Of a stretch of DNA of 64,000 nucleotides, positions 3,916 through 20,611 are shown piece by piece (positions within the stretch are counted from its first letter, which is position 1; each line of letters starts with the position of its first letter). Source of the stretch: Candidatus Marinacidobacterales bacterium (GTDB taxonomy: Bacteria; Acidobacteriota; Vicinamibacteria; Marinacidobacterales; SMYC01); contig OZ250169.1 in assembly GCA_965237955.1 (NCBI GenBank), forward strand, positions 6,688,001 to 6,752,000, given 5' to 3'. The notes beneath the pieces were generated by a model, which was not told the origin of the DNA, ran no database searches, and saw only the letters and a list, made by a program, of their open reading frames with translations. The translations under genes were made by a program, and so were the position numbers.

Positions 3916-5652
3916 TTATCGCGGCTTCAAAATCGCATACACCGGCAACCCGACCCCTTCGAACCGCTTGATCACCTCGCGCGCCGGCGACGCCTCGGGA
4001 TCCTCCGCTTGGAACTTGACCTTCACGTAGTCCTCGAGCCGTGCCGTCACCTCTGGATCCTTGAAAGTCGTCTTGTCCATGGTGAGGCAGTTCTTGCACC
4101 ACGTGGCCCACACGTCGACCAGAACCATCTTGTTCTCGGCCTTCGCCTGCGCGAGCCCGGCGTCCAGTGAAGGCATCCAGCCTTCTTCGATCTTCTCCTG
4201 AACGCTCGCGGCGACTTCGGTCGCGTCGACGAAGCGCTGGCTCACGATCTCGTACCCGAGATATCCGTAGTAGGCAGCGAACCCGAGGATCAGGACTCCG
4301 AACGCTTGTTTGACACGAACCATCCACGTGCCCGGGCGCGGCAGCAGCGAAATACCCGCTCCAGCAATAGGCCACGGGATGGCCATCCCGACGCCGAGCA
4401 GGAATGGAAGCGCGAGCGCCATCACCTGCCCCTTCGAGTAGAGAGCGCTCGAGAACACCACGACCTGGATGACGACGGGCGCGACACAGGCACCGGCAAG
4501 AAGCGCCGCGACCGCTCCCATCCCGAACGCGACGAGGTACTTCCCACCTTTTTCGGAGAAGGAGACTTTCGATTGCAGACTCGAGAAATCGATGGTGATG
4601 ATGTCGAACATCGCGAGCGCAAGGACGACGAACAAGACAGCAATGGCAAGGTTGAACCAAGCGGACGCATTGATGGTGCCGAACGTTCCAGCGGTGAGAA
4701 TCACGACCAACCCGAGCGCACCATAGACGAGTGCCATCGCCAGACCGTAAGCACCTCCGAGCATGAAGCCCTGGGCGCGAGAGCCGCCGTGCGCGCCCGC
4801 GCCGATGATGCCTAGATTGATCGGGGTCATCGGGAGAACGCACGGTGTCAAATTGAGCGCGAGTCCTCCGAGAAGCACGATCGCGACGATGGCGAAGGCA
4901 CCCTTGCCCTCGAACCAGCCTTGCCGGACGCGCCCCGCTTCGGCGTCGTCGATGAACTCGATGAACGCCTTGCTTCCGAGGAAGCCGCCCGTCGTTCCGA
5001 CGACGGCGAAATCATTGAGCGCAGTCAACACATCTCCGACATCTCCACTGGCGACAGAGACCACGTCCGCGAGATTCAATTCCGGCGCTTTTGCGAGGAC
5101 TCCGGCCGGCGTCGTCTTCGTGAAGTCGATCGCATCGAAGACAGCCGCGCTCGTCGGGCTCAGCGTTTGATCGGCTCCGACGACGTTGAACGCCACTTGA
5201 ACCGTCAACTTGTCGGGCCGGTAGCAAACTTTGTCGTCGCATGCCTGGTAGTTGAGTTGTCCTAAAAGGACGTGCTCCCCGGTCGCGAGGGCCGGATCCA
5301 GTTCCATCGCGACACCGATCGCGAACTCTTCTTCGAAAACTGCGAGCGGCGTCTCGGAACCGCCGGTGACCAGAAGAATAGGTTCGGGGTACGCGAGCCC
5401 GTTCACGTTCACGCCCGGTAACGGCGCGAACTCGAGCGACGTGGGAATCAGATACTGCTCGAGCGGCTCGTTCGAGTTGACGTGAAAGCCCGGTTGAAGC
5501 CGAACCTGCACGACCGCGCGCGGACTCGTGCCCGCGTGCACCCTGTCCGACTCGACGAGCGGCCGAACGTCAACCTGGATGCGCCCCAGCTGAGCCGCGG
5601 CGGCGACAGGCAGCACGATCAACGCAATCGCAAGCAACGATTTCATGCGCAT
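3916..5652 (-). CDS. dsbD: Thiol:disulfide interchange protein DsbD (cytochrome c biogenesis)
   Basis: Signal peptide, N-domain YQACDDKVC, transmembrane domain with LTPCVLP and ACVAP, C-terminal thioredoxin WCKNC. Confidence 0.92.
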   Translation of the reverse strand: MRMKSLLAIALIVLPVAAAAQLGRIQVDVRPLVESDRVHAGTSPRAVVQVRLQPGFHVNSNEPLEQYLIPTSLEFAPLPGVNVNGLAYPEPILLVTGGSETPLAVFEEEFAIGVAMELDPALATGEHVLLGQLNYQACDDKVCYRPDKLTVQVAFNVVGADQTLSPTSAAVFDAIDFTKTTPAGVLAKAPELNLADVVSVASGDVGDVLTALNDFAVVGTTGGFLGSKAFIEFIDDAEAGRVRQGWFEGKGAFAIVAIVLLGGLALNLTPCVLPMTPINLGIIGAGAHGGSRAQGFMLGGAYGLAMALVYGALGLVVILTAGTFGTINASAWFNLAIAVLFVVLALAMFDIITIDFSSLQSKVSFSEKGGKYLVAFGMGAVAALLAGACVAPVVIQVVVFSSALYSKGQVMALALPFLLGVGMAIPWPIAGAGISLLPRPGTWMVRVKQAFGVLILGFAAYYGYLGYEIVSQRFVDATEVAASVQEKIEEGWMPSLDAGLAQAKAENKMVLVDVWATWCKNCLTMDKTTFKDPEVTARLEDYVKVKFQAEDPEASPAREVIKRFEGVGLPVYAILKPR

Positions 5653-5786
5653 GACAGGTTCATTCTACTGCAAGCCAGGCGCGCGCGCGGTGAAGCGTTC
5701 AACAGGTTCGGTCTGCTCCCGAGAGACGGCCGATGGCGGAATTCCTCTTGATCCGCAGCCCAGATCAAGCTAATTTCTCGCAACTC

Positions 5787-6269
5787 ATGCGGTTGGGAAT
5801 CGTGCTCCTTCTTGGTCTCGTCACGCTTGGCGCCACGGCGTGCGGAAACGCTGGCGCTTCACCCGAACAACCCATTGCGTTTCCTCACAAGCCGCACGCC
5901 GATGCTCAAATCGACTGCGTGTTCTGCCACGAGTTCTTCGACAGCCAAGCGGCGGCGGGAATACCCCGGACGGAGCTTTGCGGGACGTGCCACAGCGCGA
6001 TGTCGCAGGAGAGCGAGGCGACCCAAAAGCTGATGGAGTACGTCGACGCCGAAGAAGTGATCCCTTGGGTGCGGTTGTATCAGCTGCCGCAATACACGTA
6101 TTTCCCGCACAAGTGGCACGTGCGCGCCGGCATCGAGTGCGGCGAGTGCCACGGTACCATCGGCGCAAGCATGACCGCGGTGCGCCACCGTGTCCTCGAC
6201 ATGCAATGGTGCCTCGACTGCCATGAACCCCGTCAAGCATCGGTCGATTGCGTGACCTGCCATAAGTAG
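5787..6269 (+). CDS. Pentaheme cytochrome c, ActA/QrcA-like, probable lipoprotein
   Basis: Five CxxCH motifs (CVFCH, CGTCH, CGECH, CLDCH, CVTCH); QPIAFPH and YFPHKWH motifs; lipobox-like ATAC. Confidence 0.9.
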   Translation: MRLGIVLLLGLVTLGATACGNAGASPEQPIAFPHKPHADAQIDCVFCHEFFDSQAAAGIPRTELCGTCHSAMSQESEATQKLMEYVDAEEVIPWVRLYQLPQYTYFPHKWHVRAGIECGECHGTIGASMTAVRHRVLDMQWCLDCHEPRQASVDCVTCHK

Positions 6270-6289
6270 AGCACCTGACATGACCTCTC

Positions 6290-8274
6290 ATGAATAGACG
6301 CGAGTTTCTCGGGACAAGCGTGTTCGCCGCCACCGCGGGCCTCGCGCTCGACGCGTGCGCGCCCGAAGCGTCTCAACTAATCCCGATCCTCATTCCCGAA
6401 GAGCCGTTCGTTCCCGGCGAAGAGATCTGGATGCGCTCGACGTGTTTCGAGTGCGCCGCCTCGTGCGGCATCGAAGTGCGCAAGATCGATGGACGGCTCG
6501 TCAAGGTCGAGGGCAATCCCGAGCATCCCATGAGCCAAGGCGGGCTGTGCGCGCGCGGGCAGGCTATTCCTCAAGCGATGTACCACCCCGATCGCATCCA
6601 AACTCCTCTCGAAAAACAAAGCGGCGGGAGTTGGACCGAGCTCAGCTGGGACGACGCTCTCGACCGCGTTGCATCCGCACTTGGCTCACTCGGCGCACTC
6701 GGCGCGTCCACCGACATCGCGTTTCTGACCGGGGCCGCGACCGGGCACCGGCGGGAGATCGTTCACCGGTTTCTGCAAGCCTTCGGCTCGACCCGTCACC
6801 TCGTCCACGACCCGTTCCCGCTCCATCGCCCGGTGAGCGACGTCGATATCGACAACGCGGGCTACGTCGTCTCGTTCGGCGCGGAGATTCTGGAATCCCA
6901 CGTGTCGCCGGTGAGATTCGGACGCGGCCTGGCCGCGCTTCGTCAAGCTCGCCCGGGACGACGCGGCAAGTTCGTGATGGTCGGGCCGCGGCTGTCATTG
7001 ACCGCGGCGAACGCGGACGAGTGGATTCCCGCTCGTGCCGGCGAAGAGCTCGAGGTGGCACTCGGCATCGCTCACGTCCTGATCCGAGACGGTCTTTACA
7101 AGCTGCAAGGGGGCGAAGACGCGGATGGCTTTGCCGAGCTCAGCGCCCTCGTCGAATCCATCGAGCCGAGCCCCGAGGTCGAACGCCTTGCACATGAAAT
7201 GGCCGAGCACCGACCGGCCGTTGCCATCGCCGGTCGAGGTGCAGCGCTCGCCGCCGCGGTATCGCACTTGAACGCACTCCTCGGAACGCGACCCGCATCG
7301 GCAAGCGCGCCACCGTTCGAACCGTGGCCGGCGATTCCAGGAGACGCGCCCGAATCGTTGTCGCTGAGTTTAACGAGTGCGCTCGACGACGAACCACCCC
7401 CTGTGTTGTTCGTCGCCGATACGAATCCACTCTACAGCCTCCCGCCCTCGTTCGAGCTCGACGATTGGCTGTCATCGATCCAGCTCAAAGTGAGCTTCGC
7501 ATCGATCATGGATGAAACGAGCGCAGCATGTGACCTCGTGCTCCCCGAGTCGATGTCGTTCGAGCGCTTCGAAGACGCCGTCCCGCAGGGCGCGCCCGTT
7601 CCCATGGCAACACTGTCACAGCCGCTCCTCGTCCGGCCGTTGTACGACACGCGCAGCATGCCCGATGCTCTCATCGACATCGCCAAACGCGCGGAGCACG
7701 GCGAAAGCTTCCCATGGAGCTCCTACGAAGCGGCTCTCCGGGCAGCCTGGTCGAGCCTCGGGTCATGGAGCCAGGCACTCGCCCGCGGCGGGTGGTGGGA
7801 CGAGAGCACCACGCCTGAACGTGATCCGGTACGGTATCGATTCGACACCACGGCGCTCGCGTTTCGGCCCGAGCGCGCTGAAACCAATCTCGAGCTCCAC
7901 GTGTACGCGTCGACGGCGCTCGGCGATGGCCGGAGCGCTCGCTTGCCGTATTTGCAAGAGCTTTCGGATCCGATCACCGGCGTCCGCTGGGGAAGCGTCG
8001 TCGAGATCGGGCCCGAGCGCGCCGACGCCCTCGGCATCACCACTGGCGACCTCGTCGAGGTGAGCTCGGAGTGGGGCACCGTCGAAGTGGCCGCGTTCGT
8101 CACCCCGGGGATCCACCCCGATGTCGTTGCCCTCGCCGCGGGACAAGGTCACACCGGAAACGGTCGTTACGCCAACCGTCGTGGTGTCAACGCATATTCG
8201 CTGATTGGACGCAACCCGGACGCCGACGGCGCTATCCTCACCGGAACCAGCGTGACCATTAAAAAGGTTGCATC

Positions 8275-8278
<4 letters not shown>
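6290..8278 (+). CDS. Molybdopterin oxidoreductase-fold subunit (QrcB/ActB1-like), Tat-exported
   Basis: NRREFL twin-arginine signal with LDAC; CFECAASC...GNPEHP...LCARG Fe-S motif; DETS...DLVLP; C-terminal dinucleotide-binding-like domain. Confidence 0.88.
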
Positions 8279-8991
<713 letters not shown>

Positions 8992-10317
8992 GGACACGCT
9001 GCTTCGACACGTCGTCGAGACAGGCTCCGGCTTCTACATCGTCCTGGTAACGCTCCTCGCCATCATCGCGGTCGGCGGCTTCGCGTGGATGCGCCAGCTC
9101 GAACACGGCCTCGGCGTCGCCAGCATGAACCAACCGGTATACTGGGGCCTCTACATCACAAACTACATCTTCTTTATAGGTATCTCTCACGCGGGCACGC
9201 TCATCTCCGCGATCTTGAGACTCACCGGTGCTGAGTGGCGCCGACCGATCACCCGCGTCGCCGAAGTCATCACCGTCGTCGCCCTCCTCATGGGTTCGAG
9301 CAACATCCTGTGGCATCTCGGGCGACCCGAGCTCATCTACCTACCACTGATCGAGCCGCAGTTCCTGTCTCCGTTGATCTGGGACGTCGGCGCCATCTCC
9401 TTGTACATGGCCGGCAGCATCATTTATCTGTACTTGCCGCTGATTCCAGACCTCGCGCTCCTGCGGGACCGGAGCACTCGTTTCAAAGGCATCTACCGCG
9501 CACTCGCCCTCGGCTGGCGCGGAACGGAGCGACAACACGCTCGTCTCGAAAAAGCAATCTCGTTCATGGCGGTCGCGATCATTCCCGTCGCCGTTTCCGT
9601 CCATACGGTTGTGTCGTGGACGCTCGCGATGATGCTCGTCCCGATGTGGCATACGGCCATCTTCGGACCGTATTTCGTCGTCGGCGCCATCTTCAGCGGT
9701 ATCGCCGCGCTCATGGTCGCGATGGCGATCTTGAGAAGAGTCTTTCACCTCGAGGAATATATCGGCCCGTTGCAGTTCAACAACCTGAGCTTGTTGCTCG
9801 TGACCATGTCGTGCCTGTGGGCTTACTTCACGTTGGCCGAGCACTTGACGGCCTGGTACGGGCACGAGCACGCGGAGATGGCGGTCCTCGATAGCCGGCT
9901 GAGCGGCGCCTTTGCTCCCTACTTCTGGACAATGATCATCGCGTGCTTCGTCATACCGATGGCGACCCTCTCGTTCAAGAAGACGCGTACTATCACCGGC
10001 TCGGTGATCGCGTCGATCTCCGTGCTCATCGGCATGTGGCTCGAGCGGTTCATCATCGTCATCAGCTCAGCCTCACACCCGCGCTCGCACCAGATGTGGG
10101 ACGCGGGCACCTACAGTCCGTCGTTCGTCGAGATCGCGGTAACGGCGTCGGAGTTCGCGGCGTTCATTCTGTTCTACGTCGTGTTCGCGAAGCTCTTTCC
10201 GCTCGTCTCGATTTGGGAAGTCAAAGAAGCTCCTCTTCCGAGCAAATCATTTGGCGGGATTTCGGATCGGGGCTAATATATGGGCGTTTTTGTGAACATC
10301 GAGGGAGGCGCGAAGAC

Positions 10318-10722
10318 ATGAATAAGGTTTTGGCTCTGGTCGCAGTTGCTTTCGCGGTTTTTGGCGGACTCGCGCTCGCGCAGGACGAAGGCTCGAGCTG
10401 GGAAGTCCCGCCTGAGGCGACAGCGGTGGAAAACCCGCTCAAGAACACCCCCGAAGGAGTGGCCGCCGGGGAAGCGCTTTACGGGAAACACTGCAAGATG
10501 TGCCACGGTGACGCCGGCAAGGGCGACGGAGCGGCAACGCAGTTCATCAAGCCCGCGCCTCCCGATATGACCACCGCGGAAGTCCGGGACGGCAACACCG
10601 ACGGTGACATTTTCTACAAGATCACGACGGGAAAGCGGCCGATGCCCGCCATGCAGCGAAAGCTCAGCGAGGAAGAGCGCTGGCAGGTCGTCCTGTTCGT
10701 CCGTAAGCTACAAGCGAACTGA
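10318..10722 (+). CDS. Monoheme cytochrome c (ActE-like)
   Basis: GGGAGG RBS, signal peptide, CKMCH and distal Met in MPA. Confidence 0.88.
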   Translation: MNKVLALVAVAFAVFGGLALAQDEGSSWEVPPEATAVENPLKNTPEGVAAGEALYGKHCKMCHGDAGKGDGAATQFIKPAPPDMTTAEVRDGNTDGDIFYKITTGKRPMPAMQRKLSEEERWQVVLFVRKLQAN

Positions 10723-10755
10723 GCCAACCGGGCACTGGGCACTGAGCACCGATCA

Positions 10756-11265
10756 ATGCAAGCGCAAGCGCGAGCAACGGCGGTCCTCGCTCTCGCCCTG
10801 GCCGCGGCCAGCGGTTGTAAGCCTGAAAACGCCGCGCCCGAGCTCGTCTTGGACAACGTCGACGGCAGCGGGACGGTATCGCTGTCGGAACAACAGGGCA
10901 AGGTCGTGCTCGTCGACTTGTGGGCGACGTGGTGCGCACCATGTATCGCCGAGCTTCCGCACTTGCAGGCGATGTCGGACGAGCTCGCCCCCGACGATTT
11001 CATGATGCTCGGAATCGTGCTCGAATCCGGCGAGCGCGACGCAGTCGTCGAGTTTCTCGCCGAAAACGAAATCACGTACACCCAGGTTATGGGCGAGGAA
11101 GAGACGGGCGAAGCGTTCGGGCCGTTTCTCGGCTACCCCATGAAGTATTTGATCAACCGTGACGGTCGCGTGGTGAAACGCTATTTCGGTATTATCGGCG
11201 AAGAGCTCCGAGACGATGTGGAGACGTTGATGGAGACCGGGGTGCTGGAAGACTCCGGCGAATAG
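10756..11265 (+). CDS. TlpA/ResA-like thioredoxin lipoprotein
   Basis: Lipobox ASG-C; GKVVLVDLWATWCAPC. Confidence 0.9.
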   Translation: MQAQARATAVLALALAAASGCKPENAAPELVLDNVDGSGTVSLSEQQGKVVLVDLWATWCAPCIAELPHLQAMSDELAPDDFMMLGIVLESGERDAVVEFLAENEITYTQVMGEEETGEAFGPFLGYPMKYLINRDGRVVKRYFGIIGEELRDDVETLMETGVLEDSGE

Positions 11266-17617: not shown

Positions 17618-18859
17618 TCATGAACTGGTCGTGAACTCCCGGGCGATCTGTTCGATCTCCTCGTCTTCGAGCACACGATTCGACGCTTTCGCTTTTTCGA
17701 ACACGGTCCGGACCAGTTCATCGTCGACGGGGAAGCCGCGTGAGCTGAGCCAATACTGCACGTTGGAGAACCCGCTCATCGGGCCGACTTCGATGGTCTG
17801 CTCGAGCCCGAACTCCCCCGCGGGTACTCCGGAGTAGACACGGTCGGCAAGCCAGCTATCGTTTTTGTTCAATGCTTTGATCACTGCCGCAGCGTGCACA
17901 CCCGTCCCCGTTCGGAACGCATCCTCCCCCACGACTGGGTAGTTCGAGGGGATGGGAACACCTGTCGCCTCGGAGACGAGGTGACAATACTCGGCGATGC
18001 GGCTCAAGTCGTTGTCGATCCACCCGAGGAGCTTCAAGTTCACGAGAAGAATATCCATGGGCGTGTTACCGCAGCGTTCACCAATGCCGAGCGCGCACGC
18101 ATGGACGCGATCGACACCGGAACGTACGGCCGCGATGCTGTTCGGTATCGAGAGTCCACGGTCGCGGTGTCCGTGCCAATCGATCTTCACGTCCTCGCCG
18201 GTGTCGGCAACGACCTCCTTCATGAAGCTCACGAGCGCTGTCACCCCGGCAGGGGTCGCGTGGCCAACGGTGTCGGTAAGGACGACGCGACGAGCACCGC
18301 ACTCGATGGCGGTCGTGTAGAGCTTTCGGATCGTTTCCGGCCGCGCCCGGATCGTATCCTCGGTGACGTACATGTTGGGAAGACCATTTTCGACGGTGTA
18401 GCTCACCGCGTCGGCGGTGTGTTTGACGAGCCGGTCGAGCTCCCAGTTCTCCGCGTATTGGCGGATCGGGCTCGAGCCGATGAAGGTGGCCGCTTCAATC
18501 GCGATTCCCACTTTCTGCGATATCGCGACGATCGGCTCGATATCGGCTTCGAGCGTGCGCGCCGCGCAGTTCGGAGTGAGATCGAGTTTTTGATCGACGA
18601 TCTCTCGAGCTAGACGGGTCACATGCTTTTGTGCATGGGGGCCCGCCCCGGGAAGTCCGATGTTGACCGCGTGGATCGAAAGCGCCGCCATCAGGTGCAG
18701 CAGCTCGACCTTGTTCTCGATCGGGGGCGAAAGAACCGACGGGCTCTGGAGCCCGTCCCGTAGCGTTTCGTCGTCGAGCTCGATCGCCTGTGGCGGTTTC
18801 GCGCTCGCTGCCTCGTCGATGAGGTTCCAGTCGTAGATCAGATCGCTTTCGCGCGACAA
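17618..18859 (-). CDS. DRE-TIM Claisen-like synthase (2-isopropylmalate/homocitrate synthase family) lacking the regulatory domain
   Basis: DETLRDGLQ, DTVG, WHGH, GIGERCGN and GVHAAA motifs; 413 aa. Confidence 0.88.
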   Translation of the reverse strand: MSRESDLIYDWNLIDEAASAKPPQAIELDDETLRDGLQSPSVLSPPIENKVELLHLMAALSIHAVNIGLPGAGPHAQKHVTRLAREIVDQKLDLTPNCAARTLEADIEPIVAISQKVGIAIEAATFIGSSPIRQYAENWELDRLVKHTADAVSYTVENGLPNMYVTEDTIRARPETIRKLYTTAIECGARRVVLTDTVGHATPAGVTALVSFMKEVVADTGEDVKIDWHGHRDRGLSIPNSIAAVRSGVDRVHACALGIGERCGNTPMDILLVNLKLLGWIDNDLSRIAEYCHLVSEATGVPIPSNYPVVGEDAFRTGTGVHAAAVIKALNKNDSWLADRVYSGVPAGEFGLEQTIEVGPMSGFSNVQYWLSSRGFPVDDELVRTVFEKAKASNRVLEDEEIEQIAREFTTSS

Positions 18860-18875
18860 CCTGTGTCTCCTTGAG

Positions 18876-19409
18876 TCATTTCAAGGCTTCGCGTATCTGC
18901 TCGACGAGCCTCTCCTCGTTCAACTCCAACGCTTCATCTTCGCCAGCTTTCTGGTGTAACCAAGACAATGGTTTCGGCGGAGCATCCCCCCACTCGGCCG
19001 CTTCGTCATACACGACATACACGTCCCACGCCATCTTCGCGCGGATGCCTAGCGTGGGCGACAACGCCTCCCCCAGCGCCTGAGCACCATCCCAATAGTG
19101 GCGAGCGCGTTCGTCGGGGATGAGCATCATCGCGTTCTCGGTCGCCTCGAACCGATCGCTCTCAATCGCGGGAATCCATACGACGAAGACGTCGATCGGT
19201 TCGCCTTCGAGCTCTTCGAGAACACGTTGCACCACCCGGGCGCCGTAGCGGCAGTTGTGTCACGTGGGCGAGAGCACGGTGACGAAACGAACGCGCCCAT
19301 CGGCGGCGCGAAAATTGTCCAAGAAAGGTTGATGCTCGAGGTCGAGCCGCGCGATCGGTGACGGCGCGAGCCCGAGAAGTAACAGAGAAACGAGACCCGT
19401 ATTTTTCAT
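18876..19409 (-). CDS. Putative exported thioredoxin-fold selenoprotein (UxxC), 177 aa with TGA read-through
   Basis: Two same-frame ORFs are separated by a single TGA (19260-19262): RFVTVLSPT-U-HNC-RYGARVVQRVL. N-terminal signal peptide; hairpin directly after the TGA. Confidence 0.8.
19223..19259 (-). promoter_or_regulatory. Candidate bacterial SECIS element
   Basis: Immediately after TGA: CAC-AAC-TG-C-CGCTAC-[GGCGCCCGG]-GTGGTG-CA-AC-GTG can fold into a stem with an apical loop starting with G. Confidence 0.55.
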
Positions 19410-19432
19410 GACAGCGCTCACGTTACACGATT

Positions 19433-20611
19433 CTAACGCGCTTCGGAAGACGTTCGCACCGGCGCGGACACGACGTTGCCGGCAGCGCGAAGAACGAGCG
19501 TAGCCGGCGAGATCCGCTCGACCTCGACCTCGAGCGTTCCCGGAAGACCGTGGCTCAGCGAAACCGGAAAAGCGTCGGGCTCGTCGAGGGCGAGCTCCAC
19601 CCGGACGGTGCCGTTTTGGGGCTCTTTGCCGACGCGGTGCACCGTTGCCGGCACGCTTCCGTACTGCACCCACGAGAACCCCGAAAGGCGCAGCTTCGCT
19701 TGTTGGCCCGGCTGGATTCGTCCGAGCGCTCGTTCGGGGGCGAACTCCGCGACCACCCGAACCTCGCCCGACGGGATCACGGTACCGAGGTGGACGCCTT
19801 TTTCCACGAACTCCCCGACACGAAGGCTCAGCCGGTCCCCGATCCGGCCGGACACCGGGGCGCGGACCGTATGCAACGACAGGTCATACTCGAGACCATC
19901 CATGTTGGCGTGGAGCCGGCGGATGTTGGACTTCATCTCGGCCGCGCGGCCCTCTAGAGACACGACCTCCGCTTCCTTTTCGCTTATCTCGATACGGCGG
20001 TCACCCTCCATGCGCTCGAGAGACCGCCCCCGCGCCTCCGCAGCTTTCAGCTTCTGGCGGTGCTCGGTCTCGGCGGCGTCCGCTTCAGCTCGAGACACCA
20101 AGCCTTCTCGGTGGAGATTCTCTTTTCGTTCCGCTTCCTGCTCGGCGAACCGAGCGGACTCGAGCGCTTCCTGATGGAGCGCCTGGGACTCCTCCAGAGC
20201 CGCCTGGGCAGCATGTCGCGCATCGACGAGAGCTTGATCCTGCGCCACGATCTCGCGCTTTGCTTGTTCGAGCTGCTCCGCGAGTCCAGCGGCTTCGGCG
20301 CGCTTTTCTTCGAGCTGGAATCGAACTTCGTCGGCGTCGAGCTCGACGAGAACATCCCCTTCCTCGACCGCGCTGTCCAAATCCATCGCGCTCCGCAACA
20401 CGCGCCCGGAGACGAGACTCATCACCGCATGGGGCTCGCGCCCGACTTCGAGCCGAGCCTGATCGGAGACTTCGTAGAGCGCCACGCGAGCGAGAAAGAA
20501 CCACGCGACCCAACTCGCGAGCAGAAGAATCCCTACGACGATACCGACAAGACTCCAACGGAAGCGATCGGCTTCGAGCGAGCGAAGAGATCGGGAGAAA
20601 CTCGTGGGCAT
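19433..20611 (-). CDS. HlyD-family periplasmic adaptor protein
   Basis: N-terminal TM helix, lipoyl-like halves (VEEGDVLVEL, VRAPVSG), long coiled coil and beta-barrel. Confidence 0.9.
   Translation of the reverse strand: MPTSFSRSLRSLEADRFRWSLVGIVVGILLLASWVAWFFLARVALYEVSDQARLEVGREPHAVMSLVSGRVLRSAMDLDSAVEEGDVLVELDADEVRFQLEEKRAEAAGLAEQLEQAKREIVAQDQALVDARHAAQAALEESQALHQEALESARFAEQEAERKENLHREGLVSRAEADAAETEHRQKLKAAEARGRSLERMEGDRRIEISEKEAEVVSLEGRAAEMKSNIRRLHANMDGLEYDLSLHTVRAPVSGRIGDRLSLRVGEFVEKGVHLGTVIPSGEVRVVAEFAPERALGRIQPGQQAKLRLSGFSWVQYGSVPATVHRVGKEPQNGTVRVELALDEPDAFPVSLSHGLPGTLEVEVERISPATLVLRAAGNVVSAPVRTSSEAR

Follow-up and report, generated by a model that had tools for sequence, protein, structure and literature searches.

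A predicted exported selenoprotein of the thioredoxin fold in Candidatus Marinacidobacterales, from a family with a possible role in soft-metal binding

The gene at positions 18876–19409 on the minus strand of the window (the whole stretch of 64,000 nucleotides analysed here) contains an in-frame TGA codon which, to judge from its homologs and from the genome around it, very likely encodes selenocysteine. As to the function of the product, the best explanation, to which we assign a probability of roughly 0.45, is that the Sec50-x-x-Cys53 motif of this predicted exported selenoprotein, likely together with Asp129, captures soft metals in the periplasm, for example Hg(II) or Cu(I). A role as a reductase fed by DsbD is nearly as likely, and the two are not mutually exclusive.

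The interval comprises 177 codons followed by a stop; the only TGA inside it is codon 50, and both ends of the 177-residue product align with those of homologs. The internal TGA (19260–19262, on the minus strand like all features described below) occupies the first place of a U-x-x-C motif in the context LSPT-U-HN-C, the second place of which is Cys53 (19251–19253); a Cys stands three codons after the TGA in all 95 of the family genes that contain one. The preliminary description had recognized that this single TGA splits the gene in the open reading frame list (into 19260–19673 and 18876–19235), had quoted the read-through protein correctly, and had proposed that the joined gene fills the space between its neighbours, from which it is separated by 23 nucleotides on the side of the HlyD-type gene (which ends at 19433) and by 16 on the side of the LeuA/homocitrate-synthase-like gene (which starts at 18859). 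The product begins with a predicted signal peptide of approximately residues 1–20 (19350–19409), which has a Pro-rich end and an uncertain cleavage site. A hydrophobic N-terminal stretch is present in 83 of the 95 TGA genes, by a crude measure for which the start is chosen so as to maximise it, and from this hydrophobicity the protein is predicted to be, as is likely, an exported one.

If the TGA were a nonsense mutation, a sequencing error or a codon read as Trp or Cys, then the locus would be a pseudogene or two short genes, a reading that can hardly be credited. The codon is unchanged in the contigs of four other sequencing runs from four studies and, since these contigs cover it without difference, it is not an assembly error; the TGC or TGT in the reads which the preliminary description had named as a ground for doubt did not appear. 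Across those runs the gene varies at 16 positions (7 silent, 9 missense), none of which introduces a stop or a frameshift or alters the TGA or the hairpin-forming positions +10 to +35 behind it, which again argues against a pseudogene. A reading of TGA as Trp or Cys is opposed by the terminator of the gene itself, which is also TGA (18876–18878), and by the finding that the only tRNA with a TCA anticodon detected in the genome is tRNA-Sec. What can be said for decay is that the gene is deleted in a sister population, that its hairpin, taken singly, is not unusually stable, and that all 73 close database hits are pieces of 110–134 amino acids which cover at most 67% of the query. Such short hits are to be expected, because pieces are called after the TGA. 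The deletion is found in contigs of three runs (X2, X4 and X14), in which 18881–19402 is missing and 18880 is joined to 19403 through 15 other letters, so that the start and the stop of the gene remain; the depth of these contigs is about half that of the intact allele. Because this stretch has been replaced there, the gene must be dispensable in the related population.

The distribution of codons across the family bears more generally on the same question. Homologs occur in 68 of 401 sampled Acidobacteriota genomes (a tally that includes G000, the genome carrying the window, and G024) and in 18 of 41 close relatives, whose 30 matches have a TGA without exception. The set of genes compared comprises every match from the 401-genome search apart from the G024 match and three that are partial; 122 profile hits, less 4 duplicates and 1 without the site, leave 117 distinct genes. 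At the Sec column these genes have TGA in 95 cases, TGC or TGT in 19 and another residue in 3, and TAA or TAG in none, across sequences of about 30% identity, which is not the pattern of a pseudogene; the possibility raised in the preliminary description that no other homolog would have TGA at this position has thus lapsed. In four members (L096, L097, L099 and L095) the active site has been lost, with Ser, Asp or Thr at the column or, in one of them, no motif at all, while the rest of the domain is kept. Many Cys members (P0078, P0079, P0084, P0089, P0091 and similar ones) are approximately 300–330 amino acids long and have at their N-terminus a further domain, some 130 amino acids in size, that has no Pfam match.

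A representative protein library contains 1,398 clusters (at 50% identity) related to the family at E ≤0.001, and of 147 representatives examined 129 show CxxC, another 13 fail to span the site and the last 5 deviate there. Two of the close database hits are labelled Vicinamibacteria, and a GTDB scan with the single protein produced one relative, 75% identical. A scan of metagenomic DNA for the pattern detected at least 122 loci, and 98 of those listed match the family profile; on viral contigs none of 115 pattern loci does so, and two queries against plasmids gave no match.

The machinery for selenocysteine insertion, the absence of which the preliminary description had allowed for, is complete in G000, a closed genome of one contig (8.13 Mb, 97.96% complete): selA, selB and selD score above curated cut-offs and tRNA-Sec (selC) is intact. 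Of the 65 genomes that carry a TGA gene, 62 also possess selA, and the remaining three have tRNA-Sec, two of them with selB. This co-occurrence is a weak test, because the base rate is already 75% (selA in 60 of 80 genomes of the phylum without a match); selA is also present in 12 of 12 genomes with only non-TGA homologs. A paralog in G000, of about 30% identity, has TGA in the same column (G000:C1:5825260). Its locus (G000:C1:5825104–5825660, L078) lies behind a nitrilase-family gene; its signal is lipoprotein-like and it shares the apical hairpin. It falls in a different Sec-only clade, one that includes merT-linked members, and a lipobox-like Cys is found in that clade. Other likely selenoprotein genes stand on G000:C1 at 6965657, 5874459, 2331049, 5975183, 6649240, 7474999 and 3572937. 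Two of these are deiodinase-like (PF00837), and the others are, to judge from their motifs, FdhA-like (U-H-G-P), DUF3179-like (two), Prx-like with UxxC and Grx-like with UxxT. SelD (G000:C1:4040942–4041856, L014) lies in a stop-free frame of 750 amino acids with a CGGC motif after a long N-terminal part, and so resembles the Ndh-SelD fusions named in the portion of PMC2398784 covered here. ARAGORN also reports a tRNA-Cys with an ACA anticodon (G000:C1:1295353–1295426) and an odd tRNA-like element of 91 nucleotides, a possible pseudogene (7889963–7890053).

A bacterial selenocysteine codon should be followed by a SECIS hairpin, for which the model given in the consulted parts of PMC13188914 specifies a loop of 3–9 nucleotides with a G in one of its first two places, a distance of 16–37 nucleotides from the UGA, a stem of 4–16 base pairs and an energy of at most -7.5. 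The SECIS-like hairpin predicted here by folding and family covariation (+10 to +35, 19228–19253) lies within this model in its loop of 3 nucleotides, its G in second place, its spacing of 17 nucleotides and its energy of -13.9 kcal/mol. The upper stem consists of three uninterrupted pairs (18-26, 19-25 and 20-24) followed by a bulge, and the predicted apical loop is C-G-C at +21 to +23 (19240–19242). The hairpin claimed in the preliminary description is therefore retained, but not the G-initiated loop that was claimed with it, since G stands second and would come first only with the top three pairs unpaired. Rfam has no match within the window.

Taken alone, the hairpin is no more stable than shuffled sequences (60 nucleotides, -16.4 kcal/mol, z +0.77); it rises above chance because of covariation across the family and not because of the stability of a single sequence. 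When 89 of the 95 TGA genes (86 distinct) are aligned without gaps, a family stem of seven pairs (+14 to +30) is 86.9% paired, as against 66.3% in shuffles and 38–65% when the register is slid, and double changes occur at six of the seven pairs; in 17 distinct Cys genes the same stem is 32.8% paired, no better than shuffles. The covariation score is 0.59 against 0.25 for shuffles in the 86 TGA sequences and 0.10 against 0.13 in the 17 Cys sequences, figures to be read with the knowledge that the structure was derived from the sequences on which it was scored and that kin are not independent, although the Cys control was taken in the same register. This confinement of the covariation to the TGA genes is a further argument against a pseudogene. 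In the subclade of the window gene only four of the seven family-register pairs form (16-28, 18-26, 19-25 and 20-24), the lower stem being offset. Pairs 19-25 and 20-24 are present in 93 and 92 of the 95 TGA genes and in 4 of the 19 Cys genes, and the three apical pairs together with the loop G are present in 72 of the former and in none of the latter, the background rate of this combination being 2.9% over all 216,010 TGA triplets of the genome. A looser scan of suboptimal folds passes 90 of the 95 TGA genes but discriminates less, because 9 of the 19 Cys genes also pass. Two TGA members (L050:1567 and L053:1570) have another SECIS register, with a 7-bp stem and a G-G-U-G loop 21 nucleotides after the UGA; no signal peptide is present in them, and MerR, HMA or MerA-like genes are close by.

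In a quick tree of 149 rows, from which three short TGA genes were omitted and in which every third representative was included, Sec and Cys members are interleaved, and well-supported branches force at least seven switches between them. The window gene is placed in a Sec-only clade of 14 members (SH-aLRT 98). Tandem copies also occur: a Sec copy stands beside a Cys copy at L091:2636 and 3246, and two Sec copies stand near merR and merB at L271:1510 and 2710.

The thioredoxin layout suggested in the preliminary description is borne out by an AlphaFold2 model from 67 rows, which has this fold with a pLDDT of 96.3. Its best structural matches are DsbE/DsbF, ResA, CcmG and SdbA (Z 12.8–13.3, rmsd 2.6–3.3, 122–131 residues), headed by 1lu4 (Z 13.3, rmsd 2.9, 122 residues aligned), and they are followed by GPx, Prx, Sco and deiodinase, with Z of 10.4–11.6 for GPx, Prx and deiodinase. 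In profile comparison the closest family is TlpA (E 1e-5, probability 82), followed by a deiodinase-like profile (E 1.2e-4) and GPx (E 0.012). With the extracytoplasmic thioredoxins TlpA, ResA, DsbE(CcmG) and DsbF (PDB 1lu4, 2f9s, 3or5 and 3gl3) the family shares an extended thioredoxin fold, a (U/C)xxC motif at the first helix and an N-terminal export signal, here a predicted one; it differs from them in its identity of only 8–17%, in having SPT-U-xx-C where they have W-C-xx-C and Trp-Asp where they have the cis-proline, and in a loop rich in Trp and Pro that precedes the last strand. Conserved positions of the family include W78-x-P80 after the second core strand (19170–19178; the consensus of the alignment, with the Trp in at least 90%) and W128-D129, the AWD motif before the third (19023–19028).

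The Asp of A-W-D is present in at least 90% of the 67 rows and the third core strand of the model starts at the next residue, so that a near-invariant Trp-Asp stands where the cis-proline is usual; a local profile alignment sets this Asp on the TlpA proline, with low confidence there, and a global alignment sets the proline elsewhere. In thioredoxins and cytochrome-maturation proteins the cis-proline is more conserved than CxxC itself, and it may prevent metal binding (PMC2757866, in the parts covered).

The selenoprotein could be a general periplasmic thiol-disulfide reductase or isomerase, in which Sec50 attacks, Cys53 resolves and DsbD re-reduces the pair, and this is nearly as probable as the capture of metals: its closest folds and closest profile are those just listed, most copies stand alone, and a full DsbD, the only DsbD-type gene of the genome, is located 13 kb away at window positions 3916–5652. 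Selenocysteine in the attacking position is moreover the usual mark of redox catalysis, which counts against a metal clamp. Against the reductase stand the lack of the cis-proline and of a WCxxC motif, and the failure of a DsbD N-domain query to find a match in 8 of 16 genomes of the same family, where another type of DsbD is possible. The window region 3916–11265, 8–15 kb from the gene, contains besides DsbD a set of QrcB/QrcC/DsrP-like respiratory subunits, a small cytochrome c and a TlpA gene, and in the relative G406 a DsbD lies 11 kb from the ortholog.

An unlikely reading is that of a selenoenzyme for small molecules, a peroxidase or deiodinase-like protein with the conserved Trp 78, 128 and 140 as its substrate pocket. 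The structural matches to GPx, Prx and deiodinase and the deiodinase-like profile speak for it, as does the replacement of the cis-proline in peroxiredoxins too (PMC2757866, as far as covered); the GPx profile is however weak, no member matches PF00837 or PF00255, the true deiodinase-like selenoprotein genes of this genome are elsewhere, and the invariant resolving Cys at +3 is the signature of a dithiol. The bacterial deiodinase-like selenoproteins are thus alike in the Sec after Ser-x-Thr and in a similar fold (Z 10.4), and unlike in their PF00837 hit and in lacking the resolving Cys. A Trp-Asn tetrad of the GPx type was considered and rejected, the profile match being weak and out of register. 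The family bears some resemblance to the N-domain of Selenoprotein P, but kinship with that domain is not supported: PF04592 has no hit at the family loci in five genomes, and it is absent from the best 25 of the 33 Pfam families matched with E values of 10 or less and from the Atlas matches listed. The SelP-like "Prx-like 2" sequences of the partly covered GOS set differ from the family when compared by eye.

The family is real and probably uncatalogued, a variation on a type of selenoprotein that is already known. The curated cut-offs of PF08534, PF00578 and the NCBIfam TlpA, ResA and DsbE models are not reached, and below E 0.004 no model of Pfam or of NCBIfam 20.0 is matched by any of the 67 members; the best values are 0.0084 for Redoxin (in 5 of 67 members when E values as high as 10 are admitted) and 0.053 for NF047696 (in 1 of 67), and among the numerous seleno models of NCBIfam 0.068 for NF053656 and 0.081 for NF041057 (67 members). 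A sequence search of the PDB gives no match below E 0.015, and the nearest Atlas entries are 20 clusters of "hypothetical protein" without names. The preliminary description had called the family poorly annotated and possibly undescribed, and with no curated model matched this still holds. It was not found in the covered parts of the 2026 review (119 families) and of BSepDB, nor were the motifs SPTU, AWDV in its family context and HYWD found in the covered parts of the deep-Sep and GOS supplements; no description was found in the literature, and lists outside that scope may include it. With the UxxC selenoproteins catalogued in the covered part of PMC13188914 the family has in common the UxxC motif, the thioredoxin fold, an N-terminal signal, here too a predicted one, and a SECIS right after the UGA. 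Visual comparison places nearest to it the "thiol-disulfide isomerase-like protein" MDP6341533.1 (SPN-U-GQ-C; Table 1 of that source), which is assigned to pfam13905 and keeps the proline before the third strand, a difference judged by eye only; for this group and for the Redoxin, GOS_C and Prx-like 2 groups, the comparison with the available representatives consisted of visual inspection and a motif search.

The genomic neighbourhoods are mostly unrelated (of 290 cluster representatives, 279 neighbour ORFs were scanned), and heavy metals are the only recurring theme. In 23 of the 117 loci a MerR-, MerT-, HMA-, MerA-, MerB- or CsoR-like gene lies within approximately 1.5–1.9 kb, a count to which the MerR and MerA profiles, built from single sequences, can contribute matches to other regulators and to flavin reductases. 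The neighbour is MerT-like in 14 of these loci, and the metal-linked loci are spread over several clades; no metal gene is found nearby in the other 94, 13 of which have short flanks. Among the metagenomic loci listed, 17 of 51 TGA genes with at least 600 nucleotides upstream directly follow a MerT-like gene on the same strand, often with merR and a DF-family gene as well. Fusions to HMA, MerT or DF-family domains occur in 20 of the 147 representatives, and there are also non-metal fusions, to aspartyl protease, DUF4097 and AhpC-TSA. Soft-metal binding is the best guess because about one fifth of the homologs adjoin merR, merT or HMA-type genes, and the loss of the cis-proline combined with these mer-type links points at least as much to metal binding as to an oxidoreductase. 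In such operons a reductase would merely maintain the paired cysteines of MerT or of HMA domains in reduced form, so that the repeated link requires an extra assumption.

The copy in the window is a stand-alone one. The upstream neighbour, an HlyD-type periplasmic adaptor (19433–20611), is common only to the closest relative, and the LeuA/homocitrate-synthase-like gene downstream (17618–18859), followed by an lpxA-like gene, is directly downstream in 8 of the 14 clade members, with no evident functional tie. No metal gene was found within 8 kb of either copy in G000, nor was MerT found anywhere in this closed, 98%-complete genome. Contigs from four RNA-labelled runs include no close one across the TGA; one contig of 218 nucleotides spans 18796–19013, which is no demonstration of transcription, and a scan for promoters and terminators gave no promoter-like site on the minus strand.

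The metal-binding explanation can be stated as a sequence of steps of unequal strength. SelB would almost certainly bind the hairpin behind the UGA, so that tRNA-Sec could insert selenocysteine; the N-terminal signal very probably exports the protein, which would adopt a TlpA/ResA-type fold in which U-x-x-C opens the first helix. That the selenolate-thiolate pair then serves as a metal clamp, with the cis-proline gone and a conserved Asp in its place, has at best an even chance. Where the gene directly follows merT, the protein might stand in for MerP and hand its metal to the transporter; in the present genome it might be a lone periplasmic sink or shuttle, kept reduced by DsbD.

The gene merP usually stands after merT. 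In a minority of relatives the family gene has that place, and some members are fused to HMA or MerT; unlike MerP and HMA, the family has a thioredoxin fold, and its domain gives no match to PF00403. Metal-transport proteins that contain selenium are already known (PMC13188914 and the Haft and Gwadz preprint, each in the parts covered). The Sec-containing MerT and the MerT/CopZ fusion (NF045683) combine selenium with metal transport, whereas the window copy is without a mer context, and SaoT of the SAO system, at about 85 amino acids, is unrelated by NCBIfam. It is conceivable, though less likely than not, that this is a widespread family in which a thioredoxin fold, its cis-proline exchanged for aspartate, became a selenium-based periplasmic trap for Hg or Cu, a non-homologous MerP beside MerT and a solo protein here.

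The recoding in itself is no surprise, because UxxC selenoproteins of the thioredoxin fold are a familiar kind. What is new is a large family which is cut in two by gene callers and is absent from the catalogues checked, and which offers a natural contrast, in that covariation of the hairpin is seen in the genes with Sec and the hairpin is gone from those with Cys, across at least seven switches between the two. Because two Sec copies persist in a genome where merT was not found, the work of the family is not confined to mer operons. If the metal-binding explanation is true, then selenium would be tied to the periplasmic handling of mercury or copper in abundant bacteria of soil and sediment, and the family would provide a natural test of the proposal that the cis-proline keeps metals off CxxC.
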